Below, in pieces: positions 1,701-47,064 of a stretch of 64,000 nucleotides of DNA. Position 1 is the first letter of the stretch. Each line of letters opens with the position of its first letter. Under the pieces are notes generated by a model. That model was not told the origin of the DNA, ran no database searches, and saw only the letters and a program-made list of their open reading frames with translations. A program made the translations under genes and the position numbers. Source of the stretch: Cetorhinus maximus (Eukaryota); contig NC_135901.1 in NCBI RefSeq assembly GCF_964194155.1, forward strand, positions 4,898,001 through 4,962,000, written 5' to 3'.

Positions 1701-3319
1701 TAAGTAATCCTGGGACAGGCAGCAGGTGGAGAGAATGTTGTGAATTTCTATCCTGTACTGACGGTGATGGATTTTGGAAATCTCTTTAACAGGGGGTTAG
1801 AATGAGAGGATTTACACACAGTTAACTGAAACCAAGAGAAATATTTGTCTCTTCTAAACTTATATCCTGAACTGACATTTATTGCTTTTGTAATCTCTGT
1901 TACAGGGAGTTAGAAGATTTGAAAATTATGAGATTTTTCTCTAACTCCAGTGCTTCTGCTATCTTTTCAACTGCAGGCTCCAGCAGATTAAAATTTTGAA
2001 AACAGTGAAATTGTTTCAGAGGTGAGTATTATTGAACATTCATCTACCATTTAGAATTTTTAGTGCTGTGCTCTGGTTCCATGGCTCTGGGGCTGGTGTG
2101 GCTCCTTTACTGTGGTTCTGAATCCATGTCTATCCATTACTCTGTTTCACTCTGCCTTCCCTGACCACCTCTCTGCCATTGTCTAACTTCCTCTGCCTCT
2201 AATATTGGATGTATTTTAACCATGTTTGGTATATTACTGTTATTTCTTCCAAATGTGTCTAAATGAGGTTTCCACCGTTACTCATCCCCTGGCTATCCAA
2301 TACTGATTTACCAGCTTTATCTTCCAATGGTCAGGAATTGTTTTTCCTGCACTAAAGATCGTTTTTCTTTTGCTCATGAGCTCAAGTTGACCATCAAATT
2401 ATGCTCCATTTTTATTCTCTGGAATTGATTCTGCACATCCTGAAATGTTAACTCTCTTTCTCTCTCCACAGTTACTATCTGACCTGCTGAGTATTTCCAG
2501 CGCTTGCTCTTTTTATATCAGATTTCCAGCAACTGCAGTATTTTGCTTTTTTTTGTTGCAGGTGTTTCTCTCTGAACTGAATCGAGAAACAGAGATGGAC
2601 CAATTAAAAACTTATTTGCATCAGGGTGGGTGTTGGTTGTAGAGGTTGGTCCGTGGCCCCCAGTGTAGGTCTTTTTTATGCAGTCATAGAATGATTATAA
2701 TACAGACAGAGGCCATTTAGCTCATCATTCCCATGCTGGCGCTCTCAAGAACAAATCAGCTATTCCCACCCTCCACCCCTTTCCTCATAGCCCAGCAATT
2801 TTCCCTCTCTAGGTGCTTATTCAATTCCCTTTGAAAGCCTTTGTTGTATCAGTTTGAGCTGGAGTGGAGATGGAGGAGAAGCTGCTTGGTTTAACCCTGA
2901 GGACTTTGGAACCCAGTTGGGCCCAGCAATATCCGATGTGAAATTGTCGAGGGAGGTAGATACTAGGTGAGAACAGGTTAATAAACAGACACTGTCCAGG
3001 CAATGTAACTGTTTTAGGAACAAGGATTTCTTTTGATGCTTTTGATCTATTTGACATATGCATGTTTTTAAAATTTATTCTTGGGATTTGGGCATCACTA
3101 ACAAGACCAGCAGTATTTATTACCTATTCCCAGTTAGCTGTGGAGAAGATGATGTTTGACTTTCCTGAACCGCTGCAGTCCATGTGGTGAAGTTGCTCCT
3201 ACAATGCAGTTAGATAAGGAGTTACAGGATTTTCATACAGCAGTGATGAAGGAATGGTGATATAGGTCCAAGTCAACAACAATTTGTTGTATTTATAAAG
3301 CACCTTTAACATAGCTCCA

Positions 3320-4412
3320 GCAACTCCAGAGGTGCGGTGAGAGTGACTGCCCTTGATATCAAGGCATCAACTGATTTACTGAAGCATCAAGGAGCTCTAG
3401 CAAAATTGAAGTCAATGTGAATCAGGGGGAAAACTCTCTGCTGGTTGGAGTCATACCTAGCACAAAGGAAGATGGTTGTGGTTGGTGGAGGTCAGTTATC
3501 TCAACTCCAGGGCATCACTCCAGGAGTTCCTCAGGGTAGTGTCCTTGGCCCAACCATCTTCAGCTGCTTCACCAATGACCTTCCTTCCAACATAAGGTGA
3601 GAAGTGGGGATGTTCGCTGATGATTGCACAATGTTCAGCACCATTTGTGACTCCTCAGATACTGAAGCAGTCCATGTCCAAATGCTGCTGACCTGGACAA
3701 TATCCAGGCTTGGGCTGAAAAGTGGCAAGAAACACTCGCGCCATGCAAGTGCCAGGCAATGACCCTCTTCAACAAGATAGAATCTCTCCATTAGCCCTTG
3801 ACATTCAATGGCATTACCATTGCGGAAACCCCCACCATTTAAATCCTGGGGGTTACTATTGACCAGAAACTGAATTGGATTAGCCATATAAATACTGTGG
3901 CTACAAGAGCAGGTCAGAGGTTAGGAATCATGTGAGGAGTAACTCACTTCCTGACTCCCCAAAGCTTGCCCACCATCTACAAGGCACAAGTCAAGATTGT
4001 GATGGAATACTCCCTATTTTCCTGGATGAGTGCAGCTCCAACAACACTCAAGAAGCTTGATGCCATCCAGGACAAAGCAGCCCGCTTGATGACACCCCAT
4101 CTACAAACACTCACTCCCTCCAATACTGATGCAGTGACAGCACTGTATTCTATCTACAAGATTCACTGCAGGAACTCACCAAGACGCTTAGCATCTTCCA
4201 AACCCACGACCGCTACCATCTAAAAAGACAAGTACAGCAAATGCATGGAAATACCACCACCTGGAAGTTCCCCTTCAAGCCACTCAGCATTCTGACTTGA
4301 AAATGTATCACTGTTCCTTTACTGTCGCCGGGTCAAAATCCTGGCACTCCCTCCCTAACAGCACTGTGGGTGTACCTACATCACATAGACAGTAGCAGTT
4401 TAAGAAGGCAGT
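3320..4412 (+). mobile_element. LINE (L2/CR1 group) RT and 3' fragment (copy at about 51630-52725)
   Basis: [13 protein letters not shown] and TIYKAQV..VMEYS..WMSAAPTTLKKLDAIQDKAARL motifs. Confidence 0.85.
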
Positions 4413-4529
4413 TCGCTCTCTCTCTCTCGCTCTTTCTCTCTCCCTCTTGGTCATGGTCACTTTTCTGGTGCCTTTGTGTGTTTGTGGGTTCTCTCACTGC
4501 CTGTTTTCTGGTTTAAATCAATTTGACAG

Positions 4530-5415
<886 letters not shown>

Positions 5416-5480
5416 CTCCCGTGATTTGATTTTGCTGTTAACCACACCCAGGACTGAACCATGTTCATTGAGATCTGTTT

Positions 5481-6781
5481 TTTTCTTCTTCATCTTCCTC
5501 CCATTTTACTTGGGGTCACCACGATGCTGCTTGATCACCTTCTCCATCTCCTGTCACTCACACATTCCTCTTCCAATCCCACTGCATTTCTGTCTCTGGC
5601 CACCACATCTTTCCATCTGGCCCTTAGACCTTCCTCTTTTCCTTCTTCCTGACAGTCCCATGTCCATCACTCACCTTACCACATTTCCTCTCTCTCTCCA
5701 CAATGGATGACTAGACCATTTCAATCTCTTCTCAGCTACTTTCTTCAATGTTTCCACAATCTTCACTGACCCCCTGATATACCGGTTCCTGATCTTGTCC
5801 TTTCTTGTCACTCCACACATCCATCTCAGCATCTGTATCTCATTGTATCCAGTCATTGTTCCTCTCTTCTTGATATTGCCCAAGTTTCTGCTCTGTACAA
5901 CAAGGCCGGTCTCACAACTGTCCTGTAGATTCTTCCTTTTCAATTTCAGTGACACTTTTCGATCACATCACATTGCACTGCACTTCTTCCAATTACTCCA
6001 ACCAAAGCTAATCTGTTTCTTAATTTCCATATTTCCATCTTCTGCCATCGCTGGCCCCAGGTACTTGAAGCTACTCACATTCTCCAAGTATTCACCCCTA
6101 ATCTCTTCACCTTCACTCTGATTCTCTTCCCTAGGCTCACACCGACAGTCCATGAATTAGGTCTTTGGTTTACTAGTGAAGGAAGGATTTTCTTCCTTTT
6201 AGGGAACGAAATCGGCCGTCCTCATCCAGTCTGGCCTACACGTGACTCCAGACCCACAGCAATGTAGTCGACTCTTAACTGCCCCAGCAATGGCCTAATA
6301 AGTCAGTCAGTTCAAGGGCAGTTAGGGATGGGCAACAAATGCTGGTCTTATCAGTGATTCCGCATTTCATGAAAGAATAAAAAAAAACTAATCTTCATAC
6401 CTGTGCTTTTCTCCAGTTCCCCAGATACTCAGTCATGTTCTCATCATAGCTCAGTGTCATCTGCAAATTTCACTTCCTCTCACAGTTACAACATGCGAAT
6501 CAGGGAGAGGAGGGGATTCCGTGTCGATCCTTGGTGCAATCCAACTTTGATTTTGAAAAACTCACTCTCTCCCACACAGCTTCTTACTCTTGTCTGGAAC
6601 TCCTTGGTCATGTCCTGTAATAGTCATATATACTTCTCAGGGACTCCATGAATTCTAACACATCTCCAGACTTCCTCCCTGGGCACCTGGTCATAAGCCT
6701 TCTCCAGATCAATGAATACAATCTTCGTATTTCATTGACCTCCCCAATATTTCCCCCTCACTTGTCTCAAAATGAAAATAG
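5481..6781 (-). mobile_element. 5'-truncated RTE-clade LINE inserted in ZNF 3'UTR (copy at about 49335-50632)
   Basis: VFIDLEKAYDQVPRE, GLHQGS, FADD, MLRWMCGVTRKDKIRN motifs; (GAA)n-type tail; 15-bp TSD CATTG(A/G)GATCTGTTT at 5466-5480 and 6782-6796. Confidence 0.88.
6175..6390 (+). mobile_element. SINE fragment nested in the RTE element
   Basis: Interrupts RTE frame; ends in AAGGGCAGTTAGGGATGGGCAACAAATGCTGG...AATAAAAAAAAA tail shared with LINE 3' ends (e.g. 42090-42160). Confidence 0.65.
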
Positions 6782-6919
6782 CATTGGGATCTGTTTCTGA
6801 AAATGTTAATAAAATCTAGTCCAGTAATAGGTGTTAATATTCTAGGTAAAAGTAAAATAAATCAGCTTTATGTTAAACACACAGTGTGACGAGTCCCTTT
6901 AATATCTCTAACACAAGTT

Positions 6920-7560
6920 AGTTCCTTTTGAAAGGCTTTCCCTCTCCCCTGTCTCCTCCACCCTCACCTCAAACAGAAAGTGTGAGGAGCTCACAGATTT
7001 CCTTGTCTCCAAGCTTGAGACAATCTGACCAGCTGCCTCTGCTGCTTCCCTCCTTTCCACTTGACCATCGGGCCCAACTTCCTCTAAAGATCTGCCCGGC
7101 TCTAGCTCTGAACTCATATTTCTTTAGTTTCTCTCCGATCCCCCCTTATCCTCTCGAGAATTCATCTTGTCCATGAGACCCACCTTCTGCTCTATTGACC
7201 CTATTCCCACTAAACTGCTGTCCACAGGAGAGTTTTGAATAAGCAAACTTTTATGGAGGGTGGAAGATGGGACACCAGCCACGAGAGCATTGGAATAGTC
7301 GAATCTGGAGGCAACAAAGGCATGGATGAGGATTTCAGCAGGAAATGGGCTTCAGCAGGATGGGGACAACTGATATTACAGAGGTGGAAGGAGGTGATCT
7401 TAGTGATGGAGAAGACACGTTGTCAGTAGCTTAGCCCTCAGCTCAGGCTCAAATAGGAAACTAAGGTTGCTATTAGTCTGCTTCAACCTCAGACTGTGGT
7501 AAGGGAGGGGGCCGGAGTCGGTGATGAGGTAACAGAGTTTATGGTAGGGGTGGGGGCTTT
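6920..7560. mobile_element. L2-like LINE fragments in opposite orientations (copy at about 48560-49190)
   Basis: Minus strand about 7285-7330 reads LIHAFVASRFDYSNAL; plus strand about 7180-7220 reads PTFCSIDPIPTKLL. Confidence 0.65.
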
Positions 7561-8229
7561 TGTGGGCCCAAGTATTAAATCACCTCCTGTATGGACTCGA
7601 GCATTAATTAATCGCTATCCCTTGGAATAACATTACAGAAACAGGTCCAGTCTCGATGTGGTGATAAAATTTTTGTTCACTAATTGGACTTTAACTGACA
7701 CTGTTACAATCCATAGTTTTCCATGTGCCAGAATGTGCCCCATCAATGACTACAGGAGCCCAGTGTGATTACTCAGGTTGTACTCTGAGCATGTGCAGTG
7801 CAAGTGGTGGATGTGCAACATGGTGATCAGGAGCAAATAGGAGATCACATTGAATTACGGAGAATATGGAGTCCAGAAACTGCGTTCTGTTTAACTAATC
7901 TGCTGGTGTTTACATTTCAAACAAGACACATTCCATTCCATCTACCCTATCTGAGCTTTTCAGCTTATATTTCTTTACAGAGGTACCAGCAGTGAAACAA
8001 AAGCAAAACACTGTGGATACTGGAGATCGGAATTTTTTTAAAAAGTGATGGAAACTCAGCAGGTTGTTTCCACGAGTTTGTACCTGCACTGATCTTTGTG
8101 AATTTCAACCTTCGACATTTTTCCAATATGAAATTTCATTTGGAGGTGGGGGAGAATTGCACAGATTGTATCAGGGAGGAAGGTCCAGACATTTGGGTAT
8201 CTACACACTTCAAGTACATATTTTGTGTG

Positions 8230-8760
8230 TTGCGCCCCGGGTCCCGAACTCGATTGGGAAGCCGATACATTGAAATATGTGCTGCCAATTGAATGGCGGA
8301 TTATTTACCCAGAACGCCCCGCGCTGCGGAAAGTTCCCCTATCAATGACTTTAGGAGTCCAGTGCGCAGGTACAGTGTGGGTGTGCGCTCTGAGCATGCT
8401 CAGTTTCAGTCATGGTGACAGAGTGAGGAGGAGCGGACGGTTCGGGAGGCGGGAGGAGATTGTGGGCACAGGGTAGGAATGGAAACCGCGGCTGGACTGG
8501 GAACTGGAGCAACTTCTGGGGTAGGCCCCAGGCCCCGTGTTTACCCCGCGGTGACAGGCCCGGGGGGGAGGGAGCGATGGAGCCGGCGGCTGGACGGGGA
8601 GGATTTGGAAACACTTTGTGGATCCGCAAACCCTGAGGAATAATTATCAGCTCCTGGTTTGCAGCTGCGGGGCTTCTCCCTCCCGGGAACAGGCCCAGGT
8701 TAACGGCCGCCATCCTGGCTCAGCGAGTGGAGGATGGTTCACATCAGAGGATGGGGGAGG
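8230..8760 (+). promoter_or_regulatory. CpG-island promoter / first exon of ZNF locus 2 (copy at about 47350-47885 serving locus 9)
   Basis: CpG rich; CCAAT/ATTGG boxes, TGCGCA, GAGCATGCTCAG, YY1-like GCCGCCATCC at 8706-8715. Confidence 0.7.
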
Positions 8761-9501
8761 GGGGACAATAAATAAGAGGTTACATTTTGGGCTCAAATCA
8801 ATGAGGATCTGATCTGTGGGAAGGAAGGAAACCCTGGGAGGTGGGCGGGGAGGATTCAGAAACACCCGCTGGAGGCCCCAAACCCCCAATAAGACTCATT
8901 GATTTTATTGTCAGTCTGCAGACAGGAGCTGGAGAACTGAACCCAGGCAGAGGAGAGGGAGGGAGAAAACTGAGAGTGGAGGAAAGAAATGGTGGAGATG
9001 GTGAGATGGGTTTGGATTTCAGCCCAGGGAGGAGGGAGAGTGTGTGGGACGGGGATTTACAGCTTTGGGGAAACAAGAGAGGAAAACAAGTTCCATAGAA
9101 ATTAGAATTGTCTGTTTTGATGACTTTTGTAAACTCCCTTTACAGAATATTAGAAGGAAGGATTTGCAGATGTGAAACTCAAACCTAACATCATATCACA
9201 ATCTGGATGACTCACTTAATTCATTTGGACCTGAATATCATTGGCCTTTGAATGTGGAAAGAGAAATGTTCCTCTGTTCAGTCTGTTGGAAAAGATTTCA
9301 AACATTAGTGTGGCTGGAAAAGCACCGAGAAACACACATCCAAGTGAGTGTTCCAGTGAACTGACTGGAAAGAACTTTAACCAGTTACACAGTCTGAAAA
9401 AACATCACACCATTCACAGTGAGGAGAAACTGTACAAGTGTTGTATGTGGATGAGGCTTCACTGATTGTCCAATCTGGAGAGACACAAGCACATTGGTAC
9501 C

Positions 9502-10356
9502 ATGGAGAAACCATGGAAATGTCGGGACTGTGGTAAAGGATTCAATTATCCATCCCTTCTGGAAATTCATCAACACAGTCACACTGGGGCCAGCACCCAA
9601 GAGAAACTATGGAAATGTGAAGATTGTGGTAAAGGATTCAATTATCCATCCCAGCTGAAAAACCATCAACACATTCACACTGTGGAAAAGCCATTCACCT
9701 GTTCAGTTTGTGGGAAGGGATTCACTGGGTCATCCCACCTGCTGACACACCAGCTTATTCACACTGAGGAGAAGCCATTCATCTGCACTTACTGTGGAAA
9801 GAGATTCAGATCTTCTTCCAACCTCACTGCACACCAGCGAATTCACACTGGGGAGAGGCTGTTCGCCTGCTCGGTGTGTGGGAAGAGGTTCACTGGGTCA
9901 TCCCACCTGCTGACACACCAGCTTATTCACACTGAGGAGAAGCCATTCATCTGCACTTACTGTGGAAAGCGGTTAAGATCTTCATCCAACCTCACTGCAC
10001 ACCAGCAAATTCACACTGAGGAGAGGCCGTTCACCTGCTCCTTGTGTGAGAAGGAATTTGCTCGGTTATCCAGCCTCCAGAACCACCAGCAGGCTCACAC
10101 TGAGCAGAAGCTATTCACCTGCAGCTCCTGTGGCAAAAGGTTCAGGTGTTCATCCAGCCTTGTTAAACATCAGCGAGTTCACACTGGGGAGAAGCCATTC
10201 ATCTGCTCTGTGTGTGGGAAAGGATTCACAAAGTCCTCCAACTTGGTGATACACCAGAGAATTCACACTGGCGAGAGACCGTTCATTTGCTCCGTGTGTG
10301 GGAAGAGATTCACTCAGTCGCAACACCTGCTGAGACACCAGCAAATTCATAAATGA
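9502..10356 (+). CDS. C2H2 zinc-finger protein, 10 fingers (locus 2), no effector domain seen
   Basis: ORF 9466-10356; ATG in ACCATGG at 9502 (MEKPWKC); acceptor TTTACAG at 9145. Confidence 0.88.
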   Translation: MEKPWKCRDCGKGFNYPSLLEIHQHSHTGASTQEKLWKCEDCGKGFNYPSQLKNHQHIHTVEKPFTCSVCGKGFTGSSHLLTHQLIHTEEKPFICTYCGKRFRSSSNLTAHQRIHTGERLFACSVCGKRFTGSSHLLTHQLIHTEEKPFICTYCGKRLRSSSNLTAHQQIHTEERPFTCSLCEKEFARLSSLQNHQQAHTEQKLFTCSSCGKRFRCSSSLVKHQRVHTGEKPFICSVCGKGFTKSSNLVIHQRIHTGERPFICSVCGKRFTQSQHLLRHQQIHK

Positions 10357-13756: not shown

Positions 13757-14939
13757 TCACTTGTGAACATCCTGGTGTCTCTGCAGATTGGATGACACAC
13801 TGAATCCCTTCCCACACACACAGCAGATGAACAGCCTCTCCCTGACGTGAACTCGCTGGAGTGTCAGCAGAAGGAATGGATATTTGAATTCCTTCCCACA
13901 CACAGGATAGGTGTAAGGCCTCTCCCCAGTGTGTGAGCACTGGTGTTGCATCATTTGATTTCTGCTTTTAAATATCTTCCCACAGTCAGAACATTTAAAA
14001 TGTTTCTTAATGGAGTGAACTTGCTGGTGTTTCTGAAGGTGGGATGTTCATGTGAATCCCTACCCACACTCTGAGCAGGTGAATGGCCTCTCCCCAGTGT
14101 GAATTCGCTGGTATTTCAGCAGATCTGTTGGGCCTTTAAAGCTCCTCTCACAGTCAGAACATTTGAACAGTCTCTGAGCACTGTGAACAAGTTGGTGTGT
14201 CAGCAGAACAGATGATTGAGTGAATCCTTTCCCACAAATCGAACAAGTGAATGGCCTCTCGCTGGTGGGTGTTAAGATTGGATGAACTCCTGAATCTTTT
14301 CCCACAGTCAGAGCAGGTGAACGGCCTCTCCCCAGTGTGAAGGAGTTGGTGTGTCAGATCCATTTTTCTTTTGAAGCTTTTCTCATGGTCAGAACATTTA
14401 AAATGTTTGTCATCGGAATGACCAAGTTGATGTGTTAGAAGGCGGGATTACTGAGATTCACTTCCCACACACAGAGCAGGTGAATGGCCTCTCCCCAGTG
14501 TGAATACGCCAATGCATTTCCAGCAGGGATGGGGAAATGGATCCGGTTCCACAGTCCCCATATTTCCATGGTTTCTCCATGGTGTTAGTGTCCCTGTGTC
14601 TCTCCAACGGACAATCAGTTGAAACCTCATTCATACTCAGAACACCTGTACGGTTTAGTTTCTGTCTGCTGTGAATGGTGTGATGTTTATTCAAGCCGTG
14701 TAACTGGTTAAAGCTCTTTCCATAGTCAGTGCATTGGAACCCTCTCACTTGGATGTGTGTCCCAGTGCTTTTCCAGTCACACTGATCTTTGTAATATTTT
14801 TCCATAGACAGACGAGACAAACATTTCTTCCTCTACATTCAAAGGCTGATGATACTCAGATCTTGATGACTGAGGTGACTCTGTCTACTCTTGACATGAT
14901 GTTTGAGTTTCCTGTATACAAATCCTCCATTTTAATGAC
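13757..14939 (-). pseudogene. C2H2 zinc-finger locus 3, multiply frameshifted
   Basis: Finger fragments in several frames (ORFs 14458-14820, 14154-14363, 14060-14305, 13757-13954); ends HK-stop. Confidence 0.9.
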
Positions 14940-16060: not shown

Positions 16061-16720
16061 TGACTTTCTGCCCAGGGCTGACAGTGATGGATTTAATAAA
16101 CTCCTTTCACAGGGATTAGGAGGGAAGACTCACGAAAACAAACAAAAGAAACCACAAATATGAAACCTATGTAAGTCAGTCATGGGCTGTATGCATTGCT
16201 GGCAAGGACAGCAGTTGTTACCCATTACTAATTTCCCTTGTGGTGGTGCTGAGCCGCCTTCTTGCACTGCTGAAGGTAATTTGATGTCGGTACGCTCATA
16301 GAGTTTTTCTCTGTCGCGTGTTTTGACACAACTGAGTGGCTGGCTAGGCCATTTCAGAGGGCAGTTGCAATCAAGCACAATTCTATGGAAATTGAGAGAC
16401 AAAAGAAAGTTCCATGGTAACTAGAACAGTCGATTCTAAATATCTGTCCTGTATTTACAATAATAAACTTTATAAATTTAATTTACAGGGTATTAGAAGG
16501 GGAGGATTTACAGAGTATGCAAACCGAAGTACCAAGACACACACACAAACCTGAGTGAGAGTATCCCAGTGAACTGACTGTGGAAACAGCATGAACCAGT
16601 TCCACAGCCTGAAAAAAACATTGAACCCTTCACAGTAGGGAGCAACTGGACACGTGTTCTGAATATAAATGAGGCTTCAACTGATCGTCCAACCTGGAGA
16701 GCCACAAAGACACCCGCATC

Positions 16721-17311
16721 GTGGAGAAACCATGGAAATGTGGGGACTGTGGGAAGGGATTCATTTGCCCATCCCAGCTGGAAGCTCATCGACGCACTCA
16801 CACTGGGGAGAGACCATACACCTGCTCCGTGTGTGGGAAGGGATTCACTCTGATGTCCAGCCTTCAGTTACACCAGCGAGTTCACACTGACGAGAGGCCA
16901 TTTAAATGTTCTAATTGTGGGAAAGGCTTTAAAATCTCACCGGATCTAATTAAACACCAGTTTGTTCACACTGACGAGAGACCATTTGGTTGTTCTCAAT
17001 GCGAGAAGAGATTCAGACAGTCATCTCACCTCATTCAACACCAGCGAGTTCACACTGGAGAGCGACCCCTTACCTGCTCCATGTGTGGGAAGGGATTCAC
17101 TTCTTCATCCAACCTGGTGAGACACCAACGGGTTCACACAGGGGAGAAGATATTCACCTGCTCTGTGTGGGGGAAGCACTTTTCTCAGTCTTCCAACCTG
17201 CTGAGACACCAGCAAGTTCACACTGGGGAGAGGCCGTTCACCTGCTCTGTCTGTGGGAAGAGATTTGCTCGTTCGTCTCACTTGCTGACACACCAGCGAG
17301 TTCACAAGTGA
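16721..17311 (+). CDS. C2H2 zinc-finger array, 7 fingers (one CxxW), family ATG mutated to GTG (locus 4); possibly a young pseudogene
   Basis: ORF 16721-17311; in-frame TGA at 16682; acceptor TTTACAG at 16488. Confidence 0.7.
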   Translation: MEKPWKCGDCGKGFICPSQLEAHRRTHTGERPYTCSVCGKGFTLMSSLQLHQRVHTDERPFKCSNCGKGFKISPDLIKHQFVHTDERPFGCSQCEKRFRQSSHLIQHQRVHTGERPLTCSMCGKGFTSSSNLVRHQRVHTGEKIFTCSVWGKHFSQSSNLLRHQQVHTGERPFTCSVCGKRFARSSHLLTHQRVHK

Positions 17312-18469: not shown

Positions 18470-20977
18470 CTGCAGAATTAAAGGAAAGTAATTGATGTCC
18501 TTTTACTGACGCTTCCATCTTTGGACCTTTCCCCCTTTCTAACTCTAGATTATTTCAGCTCTCCTACCTTCAGTTCCTCTCATGGACAAGTCCCAGCTCC
18601 CCATACCTTCCAGACTGTCTCTCCTAGTCTTGGCACCTAGGAAATACATCACTAACACATCCAGGATTACTAAACCTAAAGCTCAGTTTGTAAAACACTT
18701 TCAGCTACTGGACACAGTGTGTGTCCCACAGCATCTCTCGCACCTTTGGTGTGTGAATAGAGCATCATGTCTGTAAACCTGGTTTAAATTGAAATTGACT
18801 CAGCAAATGTATTAACAGCCTTGTGCTCACGGTCAGAAAAATGCACAGATATCCTTGTGGTTATAGTTTGAAGATGGTCAGATCACGAATGTAGTGAACA
18901 AGTTAAAATATAAATATCTCCAGTTTAGCCACAGCTTGTTCGACCAGAGCTGGAAAGAAAGCTCTGAATCCATTGAATTATCCTCTGTTCCCCATATTGG
19001 GTAAGTATTTTTTTGATACAATATTTTATTCAAGAAATATGTTCACAGCCCAAAGGCTGAATTGCAGTGTAACTTACGTCAAAAAACTCATAAAATTCAT
19101 TTATAGACTAAGTAATCAAGTTAAAAATATGGAAATGTGACAATCACGTAATAATATGAAATAGACAAACAAATTCAGCAGGGAAGTGGTAGGTGGGATA
19201 TAAAAAGAAGGAATATCGAATTAAAATTACAGACCAATACACTTTTCCTATATTACAGTTCCTGAAGTACATATAAGTTTCATCGTTCAAATGCTTCTCA
19301 GAGGACCGGAACCATGTAAGGAATTACTCTGTCTTTATGATTGCAGTGCTGTTAATAAAGTCAGGAAAAGACAATCTGTTGTTGTGAGCTTGATTACCTG
19401 GTGTCTGAAACCACAAGATTCAACATTTAGAGTCAACAAGATGAACAAGGAAACACATCATGGCCCAATACTCCAGCTCGATATTCACAGAAGGAAGTCT
19501 GTTATCTAATGCCTCGAGTGGACAGAACAGAGAAAGATCCCAACTGTAAGACACCCTCGAATCATTTGTAAATATCTTTCAAGTGCTGACAGGTTCCAAC
19601 AGCCAGTTTCCATTACATTGAAGTCAATGGAAGGTGAGAAAGCGCTTATAAACGTTCCATACACAAATGCAACTTGTTATTGCCATAAAATGGTAGACTC
19701 AGGAATATCACACAAATTTTAAATCTTCGTACCATAATAATCATCAGACTGGAAACTTAAACCTGCTGTTTCACTCTCAGTCAGGAACAGATCACTGTTT
19801 TACACCAATCTCTGATTTGACAGCACGTTTCCAGCATTCACTGTTCTTCCCGACTCTAAACACAGTTGTAAGGGAGCCTTCTGTTCTGTGTCTACGAGCT
19901 TTGAACCATGGAAGAGAGTGGCTGTGACACATTTCTTACACACCTCACGATTAACCCACAAGTTCAATCCTGGATGTGATTAGCAGCAGCAATAACAGAA
20001 TTCAACTCCTGCAGTCACTTGTGTACTCGCTGGGGTTTCAGGCTGGATGACTGCGTGGCCTTCCCACACAAAGAGCAGATGAACAGCGTCTTTCCAGTGT
20101 GTACTCGCTGGTATTTCAGAAGCTGGTCTGACTGAGTGAATCCCTTCCCACACACACAGCAGGGGAATGGAAGCTCCTCAGTGTGAACTTGCTCATCGCC
20201 AGCTTGTCAGATGAGTAGGCAAATTTCTTCTCACACACAGAGCACCTGAATGATCTTTCTCCGGTGTGAACATGCTGGTGTGTCAACACACTGGATAATT
20301 GAGTGAATCCATTTCCACACATAGAGCAGGTGTATGGCCTCTCCCCATTCTGACTGCGTTGATCAGTTTCCAGTTCAAATGGGGAAATGAATCCCAACCC
20401 ACTGTCCCCCAATTCCACAGATTCGCCAAGGTGCCAGTGTCCTTGTGTCTCTCCAGGTTGGACGATCAGTTGAAGCCTTACACGCACAAAACAACATGTG
20501 TACAGTCTCTCCCCAGTGTGAATGGTGCGATTCTTTTTTCAGGCTGTGCACCTGGTTAAAGCTCTTTCCATAGTCAGTTCACTCTCACTTGGGTGTGTGT
20601 GTCTAGGTGCTTTTCCAGTCACACTGATGCTTGAAATCTTCTCCCATGGACAGAACAAACATTTCTCCTTCCACATTCAAAGACCGATGATATTCAGGTC
20701 CTGATGAATCGAGTTACTCTGTCAGATCTCGACATGATGTTTGTTATGACTTTCCCGTCTGGAACTCCTCCCCATGTAACCCCCTGTAAAAGGAGGTTAC
20801 AGAAATTATCTCTGTAAACACAGGATAGAAATTCAGAACTGACAATTCTAGTTTCTATGGAACATTTCCCCCCTTTCTTTCACCCAAATCTATAAATCTC
20901 TGTCCCACACACTCCTCTCCCTCTCTGCTCATTGTTCCAGATTCAGTGTCCAGTCTCCTACTTATTCTTTTCTCCTC
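18470..20977 (+). repeat. Older inverted duplication arm (partner about 42297-45640)
   Basis: AACTCTAGATTATTTCAG (18541) vs 45563-45580; CAATACTCCAGCTCGATATTCACAG (about 19466) vs about 44193-44219; TTCCAGATTCAGTGTCCA (about 20935) vs about 42323-42340. Confidence 0.88.
20015..20783 (-). pseudogene. C2H2 zinc-finger locus 5, decayed
   Basis: ORF 20116-20487 finger remnants, conserved leader and acceptor, HK-stop end. Confidence 0.88.
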
Positions 20978-21471: not shown

Positions 21472-22510
21472 GCGTGTAAAATTAAAGCATATGGGATTGG
21501 GGGTAATGTATTGAGATGGATAGAAAACTGGTGGGCAGGCAGGAAACAAAGAGTAGGAATAAACGGGTCTTTTTCCGAATGGCAGGCAGTGACTAGTGGG
21601 GTACCGCAGGGATCGGTGCTGGGACCCCAGCTATTCACAATATATATTAATGATTTAGATGAGGGAGCTAAATGTAATATCTCCAAATTTGCAGATGACA
21701 CAAAGCTGGGTGGGAGGGTGAGCTGTGAGGAGGATGCAGAGATGCTTCAGGGTGATTTGGACAAGCTACGTGAGTGTACAAATGCATGACAGATGGGTGT
21801 CCTCGTACACCAGTTGCTGAAGGTAAGCATGCAGGTGTAGCAGGCGGTAAAGAAAGCAAATGGTATGTTGGCCTTCACAGCAAGAGGATTCGAGTCCAGG
21901 AGCAGGGATGTCTCGCTGCAATTACTCAGGGCCTTGGTGAGACCACACTTGGAATATTATGTGCAGTTTTGGCCTGCTTATCTGAGGAAGGATGTTCTTG
22001 CTATAGAGCGAGTGCAGCGAATGTTTATCAGACTGATTCCTGGGATGGCGGGACTGACATATGAAGAGGAATTGAGTCGGTTAGGATTATATTCGCTGGA
22101 GTTCAGAAGAATGAGGGGGGATCTCATAGGAACCTATAAAATTCTAACAGGACGAGACAGGGTAGATGTAGGAAGGATGTTCCTGATGGTGGCGGAGTCC
22201 AGAACCAGGGGTCACAGTCTGAGAATATGGGGTAGACCATTTAGGACTGAGATGAGGAGAAATTTCTTCACCAGAGAGGTGGTGAGCCTGTGGAATTCGC
22301 TACCACAGGAAGTAGCTGAGGCCAAAACATTGTATGTTTTCAAGAAGGAGTTAGATATAGCTCTTGGGGTGAAAGGGATCAAAGGATATGGGGAGAAAGC
22401 GGGAGCAGGCTATTGAGTTGGATGATCAGCCATTATCATAATTAATTACAGAGCAGGCTCGAAGGGCCAAATGGCCTACTCCTGCTCCTATTTTCTATGT
22501 TTCTATGTTT
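21472..22510 (+). mobile_element. CR1 LINE 3' 1 kb, inserted into Penelope pLTR
   Basis: ORFs 21511-21789 ([15 protein letters not shown]) and 21865-22416; (TTTCTATG)n tail; pLTR resumes at about 22512. Confidence 0.93.
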
Positions 22511-26796: not shown

Positions 26797-27471
26797 TCAC
26801 TTGTGAACTCGCTGGTATCTTTGCAGGTGAGATAACTGAATGAATCCTTTCTCACACATGGAGCAGCTGAATGGTCTCTCCCCAGTGTGAACTCGTTGGT
26901 GTGTTAACAGGTTGGATGACTGAGCGAATCCCTTCCCACACTCAGTGCAGGTGAACGGCCTCTCTCCAGTGTGAACTCGCTGGTGTATCAGCAGGGTGAA
27001 TAATTCACTGAATCCCTTCCCACATTCAGAGCAGGTGAATGGCCTCTCCCCAGTGTGAACCCGCTGGTGCGTCAGCAGATGGGATAACTGAGTGAATCTC
27101 TTGCCACACTCAGAGCAGGTGAATGGCCTCTCCCTAGTGTGAACTCGTTGGTGTGTTTGCAGGCTGCATAACCGACTGAATCCTTTCCCACAATCAGAGC
27201 AGGTGAACGGCCTCTCTCCAGTACGAAGTCGCTGGTGTGTCAACAGGTTCCAGGTGTGAGTGAATCCCTTCCCACACACGGAGCAGGTGAATGGCCTCTC
27301 CCCAGTGTGAACTCGCTGGTGTGTCCGCAGGTTGTTTAAATGAGTGAATCCCTTCCCACACTCTGAGCAGGTGAACGGCCTCTCCCCAGTGTGAATGCGT
27401 TGATGAATCTCCAGCTCAGATGGGGAACAGGATTCCTTCCCACAGTCTCCACATTTCCACGGTTTCTCCAT
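26797..27471 (-). CDS. C2H2 zinc-finger protein, 8 fingers (2 degenerate) (locus 6)
   Basis: ORF 26797-27558; GCACCATGG start at 27471 (alternative ATG 27531); acceptor at 27819. Confidence 0.85.
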
Positions 27472-28946
27472 GGTGCCGGTGTCCTTGTGTCTCTCCAGGT
27501 TTGATGATCTGTTGAAGCCTCGTTCACACATAGAACAACGTCTATGGTTGCTCCCCACTGTGAATGGTGCAATGGTTTTTTCAGGCTGTGTAACTGGTTA
27601 AAGCTCTTTCCAGTCAGTGCACTGGGGTGTGTGAGTCTCAGTGCTTTTCCAGTCAACTGATGTTTAAAATGGTTTGAAGCAGACAGAACAGAAACATTTC
27701 TCCTTCTAGATTCAAAGGCCAATGATATTCAGGCCCTGATGAATTGACAGACTCTGTCAGATCTTGATGTGATGTTTGATTTGAGATTTCTGTTTGCAAT
27801 TCGTTCCCTGCTAAAGTCCTGTAAAAGGAGTTTACAAAAGTCATCACTGTCAGTTCAGGACAGAAATTCAGAACAGATGATTCTAGATTCTATGGAAAAC
27901 ACTTCCCTCTCTCATTCCCCAAAATCAGTAAATCCCTGTCCCCCGCACTCTCCCTCCATTCGCACTCTGCTGTACCTAATATACACCCTCCCAAGTCTCC
28001 TGAAGGTGTTAATTGATGCTGATCAACATTCACTGCTTCCTGTCCTCGACAGAGAGATCATAAGAAAAAAGAATTGGAGTAGGCCATTCGGCTCATCGAG
28101 CCTGCTCTTCCATTTAATAAGATCAAGGCTGATCTGATTGTAGCCTTAACTTAAAATTTCCTGCCTGTCTCCCATAGTCTTTGACTCCCTTGTCAATCAA
28201 AATCTGTCTAATTCAGCCTTGAATTTATTCAATGACCCAGCCTCCACTGCTCTCTGTGGAAGAGAATTCCAAAGACTAAACACCCTTTGAGAGAAGAGAT
28301 TCCTCTTCATCTCTGTCTTAAATGGGAGACCCCTTATCTTTACACTGTGCCCCTCTAGTTCTAGATGCCCCCATGAGAAGAAACATCCACCCTGTCAAAC
28401 CCCCTCAGAAACCTGTATGTTTCAATAAGATTACCTCTGTATTGGCTCAGCCTTTCCTTGTAAGACAACCACTTCATCCCTGGAATCAGCCTAGAAAATC
28501 TTCTGTGAACTGCTTCCAATGCATATTCCTCCTCTGTAGGGAGACCAAAACTGTTCACAGTTCTCCAGGTGTGGTCTCACCAATATTCTGTACAGCTGCA
28601 GGAAGACTTCCCTACTTTTATATTCCACTCCCCTTGCAATAAAGGCCAACACTCCATTTGCCTTCTGTTATGATACAGCAGGTGGTATTTGCCAGGCTGA
28701 CCAAATCCACAAGGGAAGCTCGGCCAAGCTATCACAACGGTTTTGCAATTTGTATTAATTACGAGAAGGTTTGTGCACTGAATTCAGAAGTAATGAGTCC
28801 ACTAACCCCTTTAGCAATTTTACAAATTAAATTAAAATATTTATTAACAAAGAATAAAAATACATACGTAAGATTAAAAGATACATGGTTACATAATATT
28901 ATAACAATTCCCAAAATTCCTAATTAACCAGGCTCACAACTACACA

Positions 28947-32559: not shown

Positions 32560-35500
32560 GACAGTGAGAGAGAGCGGCGGAGAGATCAGAACCAGCGCAA
32601 GTGCGGGAAAGCTTCAAAAAGTGACATCTGCACAAAGGTGAGAGCTGATTGGTGAGTGGTGGCTAAGTGTTTTTCTCCAGATTGTCCCCAGTTTAAAATA
32701 GAATAAGCTAAGAAAAGATAGGAGTTCTAGTTTTTATTTAAAGTACATAAATAATTTTACGTTTTTTAATGTGTTTAAAGTAAGGGTTTTTTTTCAACTA
32801 GAGGCATGGCAGGGCAGCTCAGTCCCGTGTTATGTACCACCTGCAACATTTGGGAAGTCCTAGATGCTCCTTGCGCTCTGACCGACCACGTGTGCAGGAA
32901 GTGCCACCAGCTACAGCTACTTGAGCTCTGAGTTTCGGAGCTTGAGCAGCAGCTGGAGGCACTGAGGTGCATCCGCGAGGCTGAGAGTTTCGTGGATAGC
33001 ACGTTTTTAGACGTGGTCATCCCACAGCTTATGGAAGTGCAGACAGAGAGGGAATGGGTGACCATCAGTCATAAGAAAGGTGTCAGGCAGGTAGTCAGGA
33101 AATCCCCAGGATGCATCTCGCTCAAGAACCGTTTATCTGTGTTGGAAAACGGTAAGAGTGGCGGTTCCTCTGGGGAGTGCAGCCACGCTCATGGCACTGT
33201 GAATGGCTCAGCTGCACGGGGTGGGGAGGAAAAAGAGGGGAAGAGCAATAGTGGTAGGAGACTCGATAGTAAGGGGAACAGACAGGCGTTTCTGCGGCCG
33301 TAGACGTGACTCCAGGATGGTATGTTGCCTCCCTGGTGCCAGGGTCAAGGATGTCACTGAACGGCTGCAGGGCATTCTAAAGGGGGAGGGCAAACAGAAA
33401 GAGATCGTGGTATATATTGGTACCAACGACAAAGGTAGAAAGAGGGATGAGGTCCTGCAAGAAGAATTTAGGGAGCTAGGAAGCAGATTAAAAAATAGGA
33501 CCTCAAACAGGCCTCAACTATTTATTTCCGATGCCACGTGCTAGTGAGTATAGAAATAGAAGGTCAGTCCAGATGAATGCGTGGCTGGAGAGATGGTGCA
33601 GGAGGGAGGGCTTTAGATTTCTGGGACATTGGGACCGTTTCTGGGGGTGGTGGGGCCTGTACAAGGCGAACGGGTTGCACCTGAACCGGAATGGAACCAA
33701 CATCCTTGTGGGGAGGTTTGCTAATGCTGTTGGGGAGGATTTAACTAACTTGGCAGGGGGATGGGATCCTGAGAGGAGGTTCAGCAGGGGAAGATGCACA
33801 GCCAAAATTAGAAGAGAGAGCAAGTGAGTCTGGAAGGCATAGAAATTATAGGCCAGTTAAGGCACAAGGGAGTTTGGCAAGGCTGGATGGTATTTATTTT
33901 AATGCAAGGATGATGAATAAGGCAGATGAGTTGAGGGCACACATTAACACTTGGAAGTATGATGTCATTGCTGTCACAGAGACAAAGTTGAAGGAGGGGC
34001 AGGATTGTCAGCTCAATATTCCAAGATATAGGGTCTTCAGGCGAGATAGGGAAGGACGTAAAAGTGGAGGGGTTATCGCAATATTGATCAAGGAATCAAT
34101 TACAGCAGTAAGGGGGGATGACACCTCCCCTCAAAGCTCCTCAAATGAAGCCATACGGGTAGAACTTAAAAACAAAAAAGGAGCAATCACATTGCTGGGA
34201 ATGTACTATTGGCCCCCAACCAATCAGAGAGAAATAAAAGAGCAGATATGTAGGCAAATTTCAGAGAAGTGTGAAAATAATAGGGTAGTAATAGTGGGGG
34301 GATTTCAACTTCCCCAACATTAACTGGGTTAGTCATAGTGTGATAGGTTTAGAGGGAACAGAATTCTTAAAATGCATCCAGGAGACCTTCTTAAGCCAGT
34401 ATGTAGAAGGTCCAACAATGCAGGGGGCGGTCCAGGACTTAATTTTAGGGAATGAAGCTGGGCAAGTGGTAGAGGTATCAATGGGGGAGCATTTTGCAGA
34501 TAGTGATCATCACTCCGTTAGAATCAAGGTTGTCATGGAAAAGGACAAGAATGGGCCAGAAATCAGAGTTCTAAATTGGGAGAAGGCCAATTTTAATATG
34601 ATCAGATATGGTTTGGCCAGAGTGGACTGGGAGCAGCTACTTGTAGGTAAATCTGCGTCAGATCAGTGGAACTCATTCAAGAAGGAAATAGGGAGAGTAC
34701 AGGGCCAATATATTCCAGAAAAGATAAAGGATGGGGCCAACAAATCCAGGGAACCCTGGATGTCAACGGATATAGAGGATTAGACAAAGAGAAAAAGGGA
34801 GGCTTATGGCGGATACCGAGGGGCTCAAAACAGTAGAAGCCCTGGAGGAGTATAGAATGTGTAGGGGTAGGGGGAAATTTGCAAAGCAAATTAGGAGAGC
34901 AAAAAGGGGGCATGAATAAACATTTGCAGGTAAAATAAAGGAAAATCCAAAGTTATTTTACAAGTGCATTAAGAGTTAGAGGATAACTAGGAAAGAGTAG
35001 GGCCCATTAAGGACCATAGTGGTCATTTGTGTGTGGAGCCGGAAGACGAAGGTAGGGTTCTAAATGAATACTTTGTGTCAGTGTTCATAAGTGAGAAGGA
35101 CGACATCAGTATGGAAATCAGGCAGAAGGATTGTGATATAATTAAGAAATTAGCATAGAAAGGGAGGAGGTTCTAAGTGATCTAGCAGACTTAGAAGTAG
35201 ATAAATCTCCAAGCCCGGGTGAAATGTATCCCAGGCTGTTGAGTGAGGCAAAAGAGGAGATAGCAGGGGCTCTGGCAATAATTTTCAATACATCTCTGGC
35301 CACAGGAGAGGTGCCAGAGGACTGGAGGACAGCCAATGTGGTACCGTTATTCAAGGGAGGAAGGAAGGGATAAACCAGGGGACTACAGGCCAGTCAGTCT
35401 AACCTCAGTGGTGGGGAAACTATTGGAAGAAATTCTGAGGGACAGAATGAGTCTACATTTGGAGAGGCAGGGATTAATCAAGCACAGTCAGCTTGGTTTT

Positions 35501-36740
35501 GTTAAGGGGAGGTCACGTCTGACCAATTTGATTGAACTTTTCGAAGAGGTGACCAGGTGTGTAGATGAGGACAATGCATTTTATGTAGTCTACTTGGACT
35601 TCAGCAAGGCTTTTCATAAGGTCCCGCATGGGAGACTGATAACGAAGATAAGAGCCCATGGGATCCAAGGCAATTTGGCAAATTGGATCCAGAATTGGCT
35701 GAGTGGCAGGAACTAGAGGGTGATGGTCGAGGGGTGTTTTTGTGACTGAATGCCTGTGTCCAGTGGGGTTCCACAGGGATCGGAGTTGGGTCCCTTGCAG
35801 TTTGTGGTACATATAAACAATTTAGACTCAAATGTAGGAGGGTTGATCAGTAAGTTTGTGGATGACACAAAAATTGGCGGAGTGATAAATAGTGAGGAGG
35901 ATAGCCTCAGATTACAGGAGGATATAGACGGGCTGGTCAGATTGGCTGATCAGTGGCAAATGGAATTTAATCCGGATAAGTGTGAGGTGATGCACTTGGG
36001 CAGGACAAACAAGGCACGGGAATACACGATGAATGGTAGGACCCTGGAGAGTACCAAGGATCAGAGGGACATCGGTGTGCATGTCCACTGGTCCCTTAAG
36101 GTAGTGGGACAGGTAGATGAGGTGGTTAAGAAAGCATATGGGATACTTGCCTTTATTAGCCGAATATAAGAGCAGGGAGGTTATGATGGAACTGTACAAA
36201 ATGCTGGTTAGGCCACAGCTACAGTATTGTGTGCAATTCTGGAATCCGCATTATAGGAAGGATGTGTTTGCTTGAGAGAGAGTGCAGAAGAAATTTACCA
36301 GGATGTTGTCTGGGCTGGAGAATTTTAGATATGAGGAGAGATTGGATAGACTGGTGTTATTTTCCCTGGAGCAGAGGAGATTGAGGGGGGACATGATTGA
36401 GGTGTATAAAATTATGAGGGGCATAGATAGGGTAGACAGGAAGGAACTTTTCCCCTTGGTGGAGGGATCAATAACCAGGGGGTGTAGATTTAAGGTAAGG
36501 GGCAGGAGGTTTAGAGGGGATGTGAGGAAGAAATTTCTTTGGTGGGAATCTGGAACTCACTGCCTGAAACTCATAACATTGAAGAAGTATTTGGATGTGC
36601 ACTTGCGATGCCATGGCGTACCAGAGCGGGCCTAGTGCTGGAAAATGGGATTAGAATAGTTAGGTACTTGTTTGACTGGCGCAGGCTCGATGGGTCGAAG
36701 GGCCTTTTTCTGCGCTGTGGACCTCTCCGACTCTGTGAGT
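32560..36740 (+). mobile_element. Near full-length CR1 LINE (ORF1 Zn-finger/coiled coil/SGNH esterase; ORF2 APE endonuclease + RT), inactivated
   Basis: ORF1 ATG 32806 (CxxC..CRKC, VVGDSIVRG, IGTND, GLHLN); APE YDVIAVTET, DSDH; RT YRPVSLTS, LDFSKAF, PQGSELGP, KFVDD; several frameshifts and stops. Confidence 0.93.
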
Positions 36741-42490: not shown

Positions 42491-43658
42491 GGGTTTAGAA
42501 TGGGAGGAGTTCCAGCCAAGAAAGTCATCACAAACACCATGTCGAGATCTGACAATCACTCAATTCATCAGGACCTGAGTATCATCGGCCTTTAAATGTG
42601 GAAGGAGAAATGTTTCTCTGCTCTGTCTGTGCGGAAAGATTTCAAACACCACTGTCACCTGAAAAGCATTGAGAAGCACACAACCGAGTGAGAGTGTTCC
42701 AGTGCCCTGACTGTGGAAAGAGCTTTCACCAGTTACAAAGCCTGAAAAAAGATCATATCATTCACAGTGAAGAGAAACCGTACACGTGTTCTGTGTGTAG
42801 ATGATATTTTAACTTATCATCCAACAGAAAGAGACACAAGGACTTCCAAATCCTGGAGAAACTGTGGAAATGTGGGATCTGTGGGAAGGGATTCAATTAC
42901 CCATCTGAATTGGATATTCATCAATACAGTAACATTGGAGAGAAGTGTTCACCTGTTCCGAGTGTGGGAAGGGATTCATTCAGTCAGCCCACCTTTTGAC
43001 ACACTGAATCCAGACCTCTCAAATGTTTTGAATGTGAGCAGTGATTTAAAAATCAAAAGAATCTGCTGAGATACCAGTGCATTCACACTGGGAGAGGCCG
43101 TTCACCTGCTGTGTGTGGGGAGAGGGATTCACTAATTCATTCAACTTGCTGAAACACCAGTGAGTCCACACTGGGGAGAGACCTTTTAAATGCTCTGTCT
43201 GCAGGAAATGCTTTAAAAGTTCTGAGGAATTGTCAGGTCATCAACGTGTTCACAGTGAGGAGAGACCGTTCATGTGCTCTCACTGTGGGACTCAGTTCAG
43301 GCGATCATCTCATCTCACTGAACACCAGCATATTCACACTGGGGAGAGGTTGTTCACCTGCTCTGAGAGTGGCAAGGGATTCGCTTCTTCATCCAACCTG
43401 CTGAGACACCAGCTTATTCACTCTGATATGGAACTTGTTAACGTCTGTCAGGAGAAAGTTAAATATAGCATTGATCTCACGAGACAAAAACAGAGTTACA
43501 GTGGAGAGAATACATTCATCTACTCCGAATTAGGAAGGAATTCACTTGGTCACAACACCTGCAGACACATGAACACACACTGGGGAGGCCTTTTACCTGC
43601 TGTTTGTGGGTAGGGATTCATTCAGACATCCCCCCTTCTGAAGCATATTCACAAGTGA
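42491..43658 (+). pseudogene. C2H2 zinc-finger locus 8, decayed
   Basis: Acceptor TTTTACAG at 42490, leader, finger remnants with stops and frameshifts (ORF 43230-43613). Confidence 0.88.
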
Positions 43659-46047: not shown

Positions 46048-46560
46048 TCATTTATTGGTGTGAACACGTTGATGTGAAGTGAGGGTGCTTAACCGAGTGA
46101 ATCCCTTTCCACACATAGAGCAAATGAATGGCCTCTCTCCAGTGTGAACTCGCTGGTGCCTCAGCAAGGTGGATGACTGAATGAATCCATTCCCACACAT
46201 GGAGCAGGTGAATGGCCTTTTTCCAATGTGAGTCTGCTGGTGCCTCATCAGGGTGGATGACTGAGTGAATCCTTTCCCAAACACGGAGCAGATGTACGGC
46301 CTTTCTCCAGTGTGTGTGTGTTGGTGTTGCATCAGGTGGTTTCTGCTTTTAAAGCTCTTCTCACAGTCAGAACATTTTAAAGGTCTCTTGTTGGAGTGAG
46401 CGCGCTGATGCGACAGCAGGTTTTGTGACTGAATGAAACCTTTTCCGCACACAGAGCAGGTGAACGGCCTCTCCCCAGTGTGACTGCGCCTATGAATTTC
46501 GAGATGGGATGGGTAATTGAATCCTTTCCCACAGTCCTCACATTTCCACAGTTTCTCCAT
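46048..46560 (-). CDS. C2H2 zinc-finger protein, 6 fingers (one CxxF) (locus 9); decayed fingers continue to about 45897
   Basis: ORF MEKLWKCEDCGKGF..., ACCATGG start. Confidence 0.8.
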   Translation of the reverse strand: MEKLWKCEDCGKGFNYPSHLEIHRRSHTGERPFTCSVCGKGFIQSQNLLSHQRAHSNKRPLKCSDCEKSFKSRNHLMQHQHTHTGERPYICSVFGKGFTQSSTLMRHQQTHIGKRPFTCSMCGNGFIQSSTLLRHQRVHTGERPFICSMCGKGFTRLSTLTSHQRVHTNK

Positions 46561-47064
46561 GGTGTGGGTGCCCTTGTGTCTCTCCAGGTTGGATGATCAT
46601 TTGAAGTCTCATCTGCATGCAGGTCATGTGTGTGGTTTCGCCCCACTGTGAATGGTGAGATGTTTTTTCAGCTGTGCAACTGGTTAAAGCTCTTTCCAAG
46701 TTCAATGCACTGGAACACTCTCACTGTGTGTGACTTGGTGGTTTTCCAGTCATTCTGATGGTTTAAATCTTTTCCAACAGACAACAAATATTTCACCTTC
46801 CAAACTCAAAGGCCAATGATACTCAAGTCCTGATGAACAGAGTGACTCTTAAATTTTGATTTGAAGCTTGGTTTGAGTTCCCTGTCTGTAAATCCTCCCT
46901 TTCTAATGCACCTTTACAAAAGTCATTGCTGTGAGCACGGGATACCCTGTAAAAGGAGATTGCCAAAGTCATCACTATCAGCCCAGGATAGAAATTCAAA
47001 ACACACGATTCTAGTTTCTATGGCACATTTTTTTCTTCTCTTGTTCCCCCAAATCCGTAAATCC

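Follow-up and report, generated by a model that had tools for sequence, protein, structure and literature searches.

A probably untranslated, finger-derived leader in a shark zinc-finger gene family, with a stop codon probably inherited from one ancestor and a slowly changing block of about 90 nt

Why does a TGA lie exactly 39 nt ahead of the start codon in several neighboring C2H2 zinc-finger genes of Cetorhinus maximus, and is the finger-like sequence in front of that start maintained or dead? In this study, we analyzed a window of 64,000 nucleotides (the whole stretch examined; contig NC_135901.1, positions 4,898,001 to 4,962,000) together with homologous loci elsewhere in the genome. The main exon of locus 2 starts at 9146, directly after an acceptor AG at 9144-9145, and opens with a fossil linker (9146-9274, forward strand), which is followed by three frameshifted fossil C2H2 fingers (9275-9501, forward), with an in-frame TGA (9463-9465, forward) at the -1 helix position of fossil finger 3. 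The ORF behind them (9502-10356, forward) encodes 284 amino acids with 10 C2H2 fingers, and its ATG occupies the Gly slot of an HTGEKP linker. In the majority sequence of the family, a linker of 43 codons can be read, followed by three C2H2 fingers with 84-nt spacing apart from a variable CA repeat, in agreement with the consensus proposed for the leader in the original prediction.

The TGA and an ATG 39 nt apart were found in three window loci, all in ACCATGG context: locus 2 (9463/9502), locus 9 (46599/46560; long leader at 46560-46946, reverse strand) and locus 12 (61977/62016; medium leader at 61780-62018, forward). Three further loci carried the TGA in a different setting. In pseudogene 3 (long leader at 14580-14939, reverse) the TGA at 14617 and the ATG at 14580 are 37 nt apart; locus 4 (internally deleted leader at 16489-16723, forward) has the TGA at 16682 but a GTG at 16721; and pseudogene 5 (long leader at 20429-20783, reverse) has the TGA at 20468 and a TTG at the ATG position, 20429. 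Other codons were present in locus 6 (long leader at 27471-27818, reverse; AGA at 27510), in pseudogene 8 (long leader at 42491-42855, forward; TTA at 42814 and CTG at 42853), and in loci 1 and 10, whose short-type exon starts (4530-4752, forward, and 51290-51510, reverse) have CGA at 4711 and 51329 and their own ATG, that of locus 10 at 51401. Thus, the leader itself proved real and the codons described for pseudogenes 3 and 5 and for loci 6, 1 and 10 were all seen, but the claim that most cluster members have a TGA exactly 39 nt before a Kozak ATG was too broad: the third fossil finger is retained at 11 window loci, of which 6 had the TGA and only 3 the exact arrangement. Likewise, a TGA 13 codons before the MEK(P/L)WKC start stood for loci 2, 9 and 12 and failed for locus 4, where the start codon is missing. 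What had been treated as one undivided cluster was in fact a merger of two subfamilies, a long-leader MEKPWKC type (7 loci, plus 1 with an internal deletion) and a short-leader MEGKSTVH type (3 loci), the genes of which lack fingers 1-2 and use another ATG.

The two types were also seen in a family-wide sample totaling 1,864,000 bases, which contained 130 loci. Of its 16 blocks, 10 were placed blindly at round coordinates, 5 were taken around top matches and 1 around the window. The long type (67 loci) had TGA in 58 and TAA in 4, with the exact TGA-39-ATG in 38, and the blocks at blind coordinates alone gave a long-type TGA in 30 of 36; the medium type had TGA in 5 of 5. The short type (58 loci) showed CGA in 26, CAA in 19 and TGA in 4; these loci lack about 144 nt (fingers 1-2) and have their own ATG, so that finger 3 is translated. 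These TGA counts are far beyond chance as evidence of homology, yet they reflect shared ancestry and not independent recurrence. None of 59 long leaders was open in the frame of the ORF, each having 3 to 9 stops. The long-type ATG falls in the Gly slot of the HTGEKP linker, and its ACCATGG context (22 of 30 intact loci) arises because that slot supplies the sequence. The short subfamily (e.g., window 4530-4752) has an in-frame TAA of its own 27 nt before the ATG (22 of 34 loci) and few upstream ATGs, unlike the long type.

Searching the 3.99-Gb genome with the leader returned 3,456 first-look candidates, most of the best matches being on the 65-Mb contig that holds the window. An exact 22-base pattern for the MEK[PL]WKC start occurred 1,044 times genome-wide, and a 24-base leader pattern 519 times; since the latter detects 15 of the 67 sampled long-leader loci, roughly 2,300 long-leader loci may be estimated. 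A second, smaller cluster of the family (L216-L225) was observed on contig C22 at 9-11 Mb and 29-30 Mb.

With regard to gene structure, a CpG-rich promoter region and a short, likely non-coding first exon of locus 2 lie at 8300-8520 (forward), ending at a donor GT (8521-8522). A joint from 8521 to 9212 was present in contigs of two of three presumed-RNA runs (two studies) and absent from the large run X16; in a separate presumed-RNA contig the match starts at 9145, with 52 other letters ahead of it, and continues through the ATG. Exon 1 is short and variable, and its ends share no common ATG or phase across 39 homologues. In addition, in two dispersed, intronless copies (L213 and L214) the family homology starts at the acceptor with an exon-1-like end directly ahead (matching in 10-11 of 20 and 15 of 20 letters, respectively); a pattern search for further spliced-junction copies returned none. 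On the basis of the contig joints, the intronless copies and an exon 1 without a shared ATG, the message likely consists of a short non-coding exon and a single exon that holds the leader, the ORF and the 3' UTR. Reading exon 1 as helix-like coding sequence in phase with the fossil frame was rejected, this feature being specific to the locus-2 lineage.

Several other features of these upstream regions were observed. A conserved module just inside intron 1 (8561-8720, forward) is family-wide, with homologues upstream of many loci of both subfamilies, and a possible but weak optional non-coding exon lies at 8922-9000 (forward; AG 8920-8921, GT 9001-9002), for which one run (X10) showed loose contig ends at positions 8922 and 9003. 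Motifs at 8300-8720, which in our view resemble NRF1, YY1 and ZNF143 sites, occur on both strands and suggest a two-way promoter. Tandem duplicates of the acceptor and linker start are found upstream of many genes (e.g., L088-L089, and window 1735-1835 and 54211-54311) and may serve as extra non-coding exons. The window also contains an inverted segmental duplication, about 3500-9120 versus 47100-52500, which includes loci 1 and 10 and the promoters of loci 2 and 9. The dispersed intronless copies L212-L215 (contigs C3, C4, C5 and C10) are likely processed, with neither poly(A) tails nor target duplications seen in the flanks examined; L212, a short-type copy, seems to have taken up a portion of the intron-1 module as an exon, and L214 and L215 have an unusual finger array in common.

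Is the leader as a whole kept by selection? Rates were obtained from 49 of the 67 long loci, after removal of 7 top matches, 9 incomplete loci and 2 near-duplicates. The tree of a 37-locus subset was star-like, and the distance to the majority sequence is therefore a fair measure of change. Non-CpG divergence was 0.123 for the leader versus 0.119 for the adjacent intron, a ratio of 1.03 (CI 0.81-1.35) on the 41 loci left after 8 of the 49 without an alignable intron were dropped, the comparator being 110 nt of a short intron that could itself be constrained. A cruder first pass, before such loci were removed, had given 0.82. In the short type, the leader value was about 0.09, compared with 0.09-0.11 in the intron further out and 0.04-0.07 nearest the acceptor. 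A pairwise comparison of leader and distal intron was left out of the rates because its loci had been picked by leader similarity and included mosaic pairs. Thus, the leader as a whole diverges like the intron, which is the outcome named beforehand as refuting the proposal of a retained leader.

Coding constraint begins at the ATG. The pN/pS ratio was 0.90 (0.75-1.09; 49 loci) for the leader, 0.96 (0.77-1.22) for the fossil linker and 0.82 (0.53-1.26) for the structural codons of the fossil fingers, as compared with 0.18 (0.11-0.32; 49 loci) for the structural codons (Cys, His, Phe and Leu) of the first two ORF fingers; DNA-contact codons of the ORF fingers gave 1.09-1.29. Between the TGA and the ATG, the observed/expected ratio was 0.70 for non-synonymous and 0.77 for synonymous changes, and after the ATG it was 0.30 and 0.70, respectively. 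The 19 intact loci had 58 indels in the leader outside the CA repeat, only 6 of them multiples of three, and 2 at the ORF start, both multiples of three. With no open leader, a pN/pS near 1 before the ATG and a short non-coding first exon, the idea that sequence which formerly encoded the front end now belongs to the 5' UTR, leaving finger-only proteins, is supported. A mutation rate of 7 x 10^-10 per base per generation (PMC10587355) implies that 0.13 changes per site need on the order of 10^8 generations, and dead sequence would therefore stay readable without selection.

Within this otherwise neutral leader, however, one sub-block is reproducibly slow. Sliding windows revealed a trough at model columns 295-390, which corresponds to about 90 nt from the end of fossil finger 1 through finger 2 (the locus-2 copy, columns 300-390, lies at 9306-9390, forward). 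Pooled counts were 353/4551 in the block and 2015/14970 in the rest of the leader (ratio 0.58), and the block was the slower part in 58 of 66 loci. The ratio was 0.59-0.66 and the scan p 0.0003-0.0023 under five masks (including three CpG masks and transversions only), and hidden CpG sites were rejected as the cause since the block was slow under every CpG mask; the scan p from tree-based counts was 0.0002. In a younger clade (16 loci), 19 changes fell on 73 block sites, or 0.26 versus about 0.46 changes per site (p 0.01). An independent set picked by the ORF start only, in which 17 of 30 loci were used and 13 skipped as incomplete or duplicate, gave 117/1165 versus 575/3888 (ratio 0.68; 14 of 17 loci; p 1e-5). 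The exception is the locus-2 lineage, which is not slower there than in the rest of the leader; its close paralogue L233 has 10/68 in the block versus 21/229. At locus 6 the block shows no change at all from the majority sequence, and in the smaller cluster on contig C22 the ratio was 0.76 (6 loci). Most of the block is absent from the 63 of 130 loci that belong to the short or medium type and, within the window, is deleted from locus 12. For a comparison across species, two protein models, one from a catshark (27/30 in the block versus 18/29 in the linker) and one from a white shark (18/23 versus 25/37), were too few to count. It appears that the earlier suggestion of a cis element in the leader survives only for this sub-block, which had not been singled out, and not for the leader as a whole.

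Taken together, the leader probably represents the untranslated remains of a coding linker and three fingers, with a stop inherited from a single ancestor and a block of about 90 bases that is a putative, weakly selected binding site. For the block itself, we see about even odds that it is under sequence-level selection by a putative bound factor and not by way of RNA structure or a peptide; such a factor might be a multi-finger protein on the DNA or an RNA-binding protein on the message. The choice between selection on the primary sequence and a mutation cold spot is near even.

The most serious competitor, which we rate somewhat below an even chance, holds that the leader is neutral throughout and that the block is a local mutation cold spot or has been partly homogenised by gene conversion. 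It would account for the block being as slow in broken genes as in intact ones (0.60 versus 0.57, p 0.39), although this test has little power because the sampled pseudogenes are young (decay <=0.087). All substitution classes but one fall together in the block, as do paired and unpaired sites (0.50 versus 0.52), and a transversion at column 357 has 11 carriers in 10 steps, all of which suits a neutral cause. Exchange between loci is shown by mosaics: loci 2 and 9 are 1.1% apart in their upstream DNA and 18.5% apart in their leaders, which places a recombination or conversion edge near the acceptor. On the other hand, the alleles in the block form a star-like spectrum, with 5 of 126 found in at least five loci, which is unlike that of ongoing conversion. 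Donation from the short subfamily is insufficient, as stretches outside the block that this subfamily lacks are fast (0.157 and 0.127 versus 0.070), and hairpin-templated repair is unlikely with only 2-3 double compensatory changes. Thus, equilibrium conversion, short-type donation and hairpin-templated repair all fit the slow block poorly.

Selection on RNA structure, namely on a three-way junction in the 5' UTR with a closing stem of 10+5 base pairs, which would tune scanning or shunting, seems unlikely. In the fold of the majority sequence, columns 302-311 are predicted to pair with columns 381-390 (probability 0.97-0.98), coinciding with the block edges, and the mean folding z was -1.79 in 47 real copies versus +0.17 to +0.45 in four control windows; 18 of the 47 copies were below z -2, and stability was better than in shuffles at the block only. 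However, covariation was absent, with every measure within shuffles (e.g., 245/500 for the covariation score), and changes that keep pairs were not favored (observed/expected 0.36, versus 0.55 for those that break them). No consensus structure was returned by RNAalifold and no family near threshold by Rfam, the 3 weak matches of which were far below the gathering score, outside the block and in one locus. Pairing of the block with the 3' UTR of the same gene was no better than in controls, and its position was not fixed.

More doubtful still is the view that the TGA and the upstream ATGs form a conserved upstream ORF or insulator that controls the translation of the whole family. In ATF4-type conserved upstream ORFs, upstream ATGs and stops precede a strong main ATG, and the same elements are present here: intact long-leader genes have a mean of 3.6 upstream ATGs (22 loci), and the in-frame stop 27 nt before the ATG in the short subfamily could be taken as a parallel. 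Unlike in the ATF4 type, neither the upstream ATG, nor the length, nor the peptide is conserved. The upstream ATGs drift in place, frame and length, with overlapping out-of-frame upstream ORFs in 7 of the 22 intact genes; the one at column 260 is kept in 30 of 46 loci (31.5 expected) and a second in 18 of 48. There is no avoidance of new ones, as ATG-creating CpG sites show 24 ATG versus 17 ACA, and codon bias in the slow block is absent in every frame on both strands, without clear synonymous excess in 12 frame-segment tests. As a separate observation, the finger-1 stop of locus 2 is TGG, and an upstream ATG opens a 32-codon ORF there (9266-9364, forward) with one complete-looking C2H2 finger; TGG at this position was seen in 2 of the 67 long loci, likely by chance.

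Retention of the stop itself is slightly in excess, which such a control device would lead one to expect: the TGA is unchanged in 40 of 49 loci versus 33.6 expected (context-free matrix, p 0.03), and any stop is kept in 44 of 49 versus 37.4 expected (p 0.014), each being one of several tests. However, the 12 TGA triplets of the majority sequence are kept at 0.61-0.94, and the -39 TGA, at 0.82, is mid-range; a T-to-C change at this TGA makes a CpG and would presumably tend to revert. A stop before the first ATG is, moreover, partly true by definition. Genome-wide, 44 exact-flank matches had TGA in 35, TAA in 6, TTA in 2 and TGG in 1, that is, a stop in 41 of 44 copies that are not independent. 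Neither the TGA nor an upstream ORF thus holds up as a kept control device.

The same stops were found in named gene models of other sharks: the Pristiophorus models P0001 and P0002 and the Heterodontus model P0008 terminate at the finger-1 stop, and the Carcharodon (white shark) model P0004 at the -39 stop, where the Heterodontus model P0003 has Arg. It is therefore likely that the stops arose before the major shark lineages diverged. Because retention of the TGA does not exceed that of other TGA triplets and a white-shark model terminates there, the stop common to the family is likely due to descent from one ancestral gene and not to selection, and simple descent, one of the alternatives originally listed, holds. 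Although a stop common to hundreds of paralogues resembles a device, descent in a slowly mutating lineage explains it. Repeated origin by CpG decay in separate genes, the other alternative listed, did produce the TGA in 4 of 58 loci of the short type, in which this codon is otherwise mainly CGA or CAA. As a general account it is very improbable, and for the long type it was refuted by the absence of a CAA class: of 72 long- and medium-type loci, 63 carry TGA and a single one CGA, whereas genuine CpG sites elsewhere in this leader are still CG in 41-65% and have otherwise become either TG or CA.

For a leader that descends as dead coding sequence, the following course may be proposed. An ancestral gene would have undergone a CGA-to-TGA change in finger 3; an ATG in the following linker, already in strong context, would have allowed translation to move to MEKPWKC, and this finger-only gene would then have expanded before the living shark orders split. 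To arrive at the main start codon, ribosomes would have to pass about 3-4 upstream ATGs that are not conserved, either by leaky scanning or by reinitiation. Tandem-finger translation stalls ribosomes in zebrafish (PMC11620358), and such stalling might be a reason to damp initiation.

The linker search gave 37 matches among 1.84 billion representatives; the 30 that were looked up comprised 21 named shark models, 7 unnamed sequences and 2 unrelated ones (low-complexity or chance). Inspection of 28 sequences showed no common N-terminal domain, and fossil finger 2 retrieved one lizard ZNF only. Two window proteins contain 10 and 8 PF00096 stretches with HTGEKP-type linkers. KRAB was found neither among the Pfam matches of the linker, all of which were finger families (7 of the 7 shown), nor among the best 25 matches for two ORFs. 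Shark models P0001, P0003 and P0005 have unrelated upstream ORFs, including histone H2A, spliced onto the leader acceptor and are likely annotation chimeras; gene models that read into the leader are likely artefacts.

The genes themselves are ordinary tandem C2H2 genes. Like the lineage-specific tandem C2H2 expansions described in PMC10547256, they form clustered arrays in birth and death with conserved structural codons and contact codons free to change; unlike in those, no accessory domain exon was found here, and a fossil coding leader lies within the finger exon. In the cyprinid FiNZ-ZNF and tetrapod KRAB-ZNF genes of the same source, too, a single large finger exon is joined to a short exon upstream. 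In contrast to these, the upstream exon here has no shared ATG or phase, and the protein would therefore be fingers only; nor was a conserved coding first exon, such as that for the 28-aa acidic N-terminal domain of the FiNZ type, found in the 39 homologues. KRAB has been lost in cartilaginous fishes (PMC8455134), and these fishes would have to control thousands of finger-only genes without it. Human ZNF finger exons carry ZNF274/SETDB1/ATRX domains (PMC4939920), where finger-coding DNA acts as a family-wide binding platform, and by analogy the slow block could be another; the human sites, however, lie in live coding repeats and depend on KRAB/TRIM28, whereas the case here is drawn from sequence. 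Similarly, miR-181a sites in ZNF coding regions (PMC2978345) offer an analogy for family-wide control at the RNA level through finger-type sequence, but those sites are seed-sized and within coding repeats, in contrast to a 90-nt block in a 5' leader. No account of this leader was found in the openly accessible main texts covered.

What is new here is the slow block of about 90 nt in a leader that is otherwise neutral. It matters more than the correction concerning the TGA, being a discrete 90-nt element that one subfamily possesses and that the other has lost by natural deletion. A bolder possibility, which we consider less likely than not, is that a remnant of zinc-finger coding sequence, no longer translated, was co-opted as a control element common to some 2,000 shark genes, the 90-base platform in the 5' leader being bound by a finger protein of the family or an RNA-binding factor, so that a KRAB-less vertebrate might jointly control, or shut down, the zinc-finger genes of an entire chromosome.

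Finally, the window also contains broken ORFs of LINE-type retrotransposons, with endonuclease and reverse transcriptase fragments, at 33200-36640 and 21865-22416, which we take to be CR1-like.
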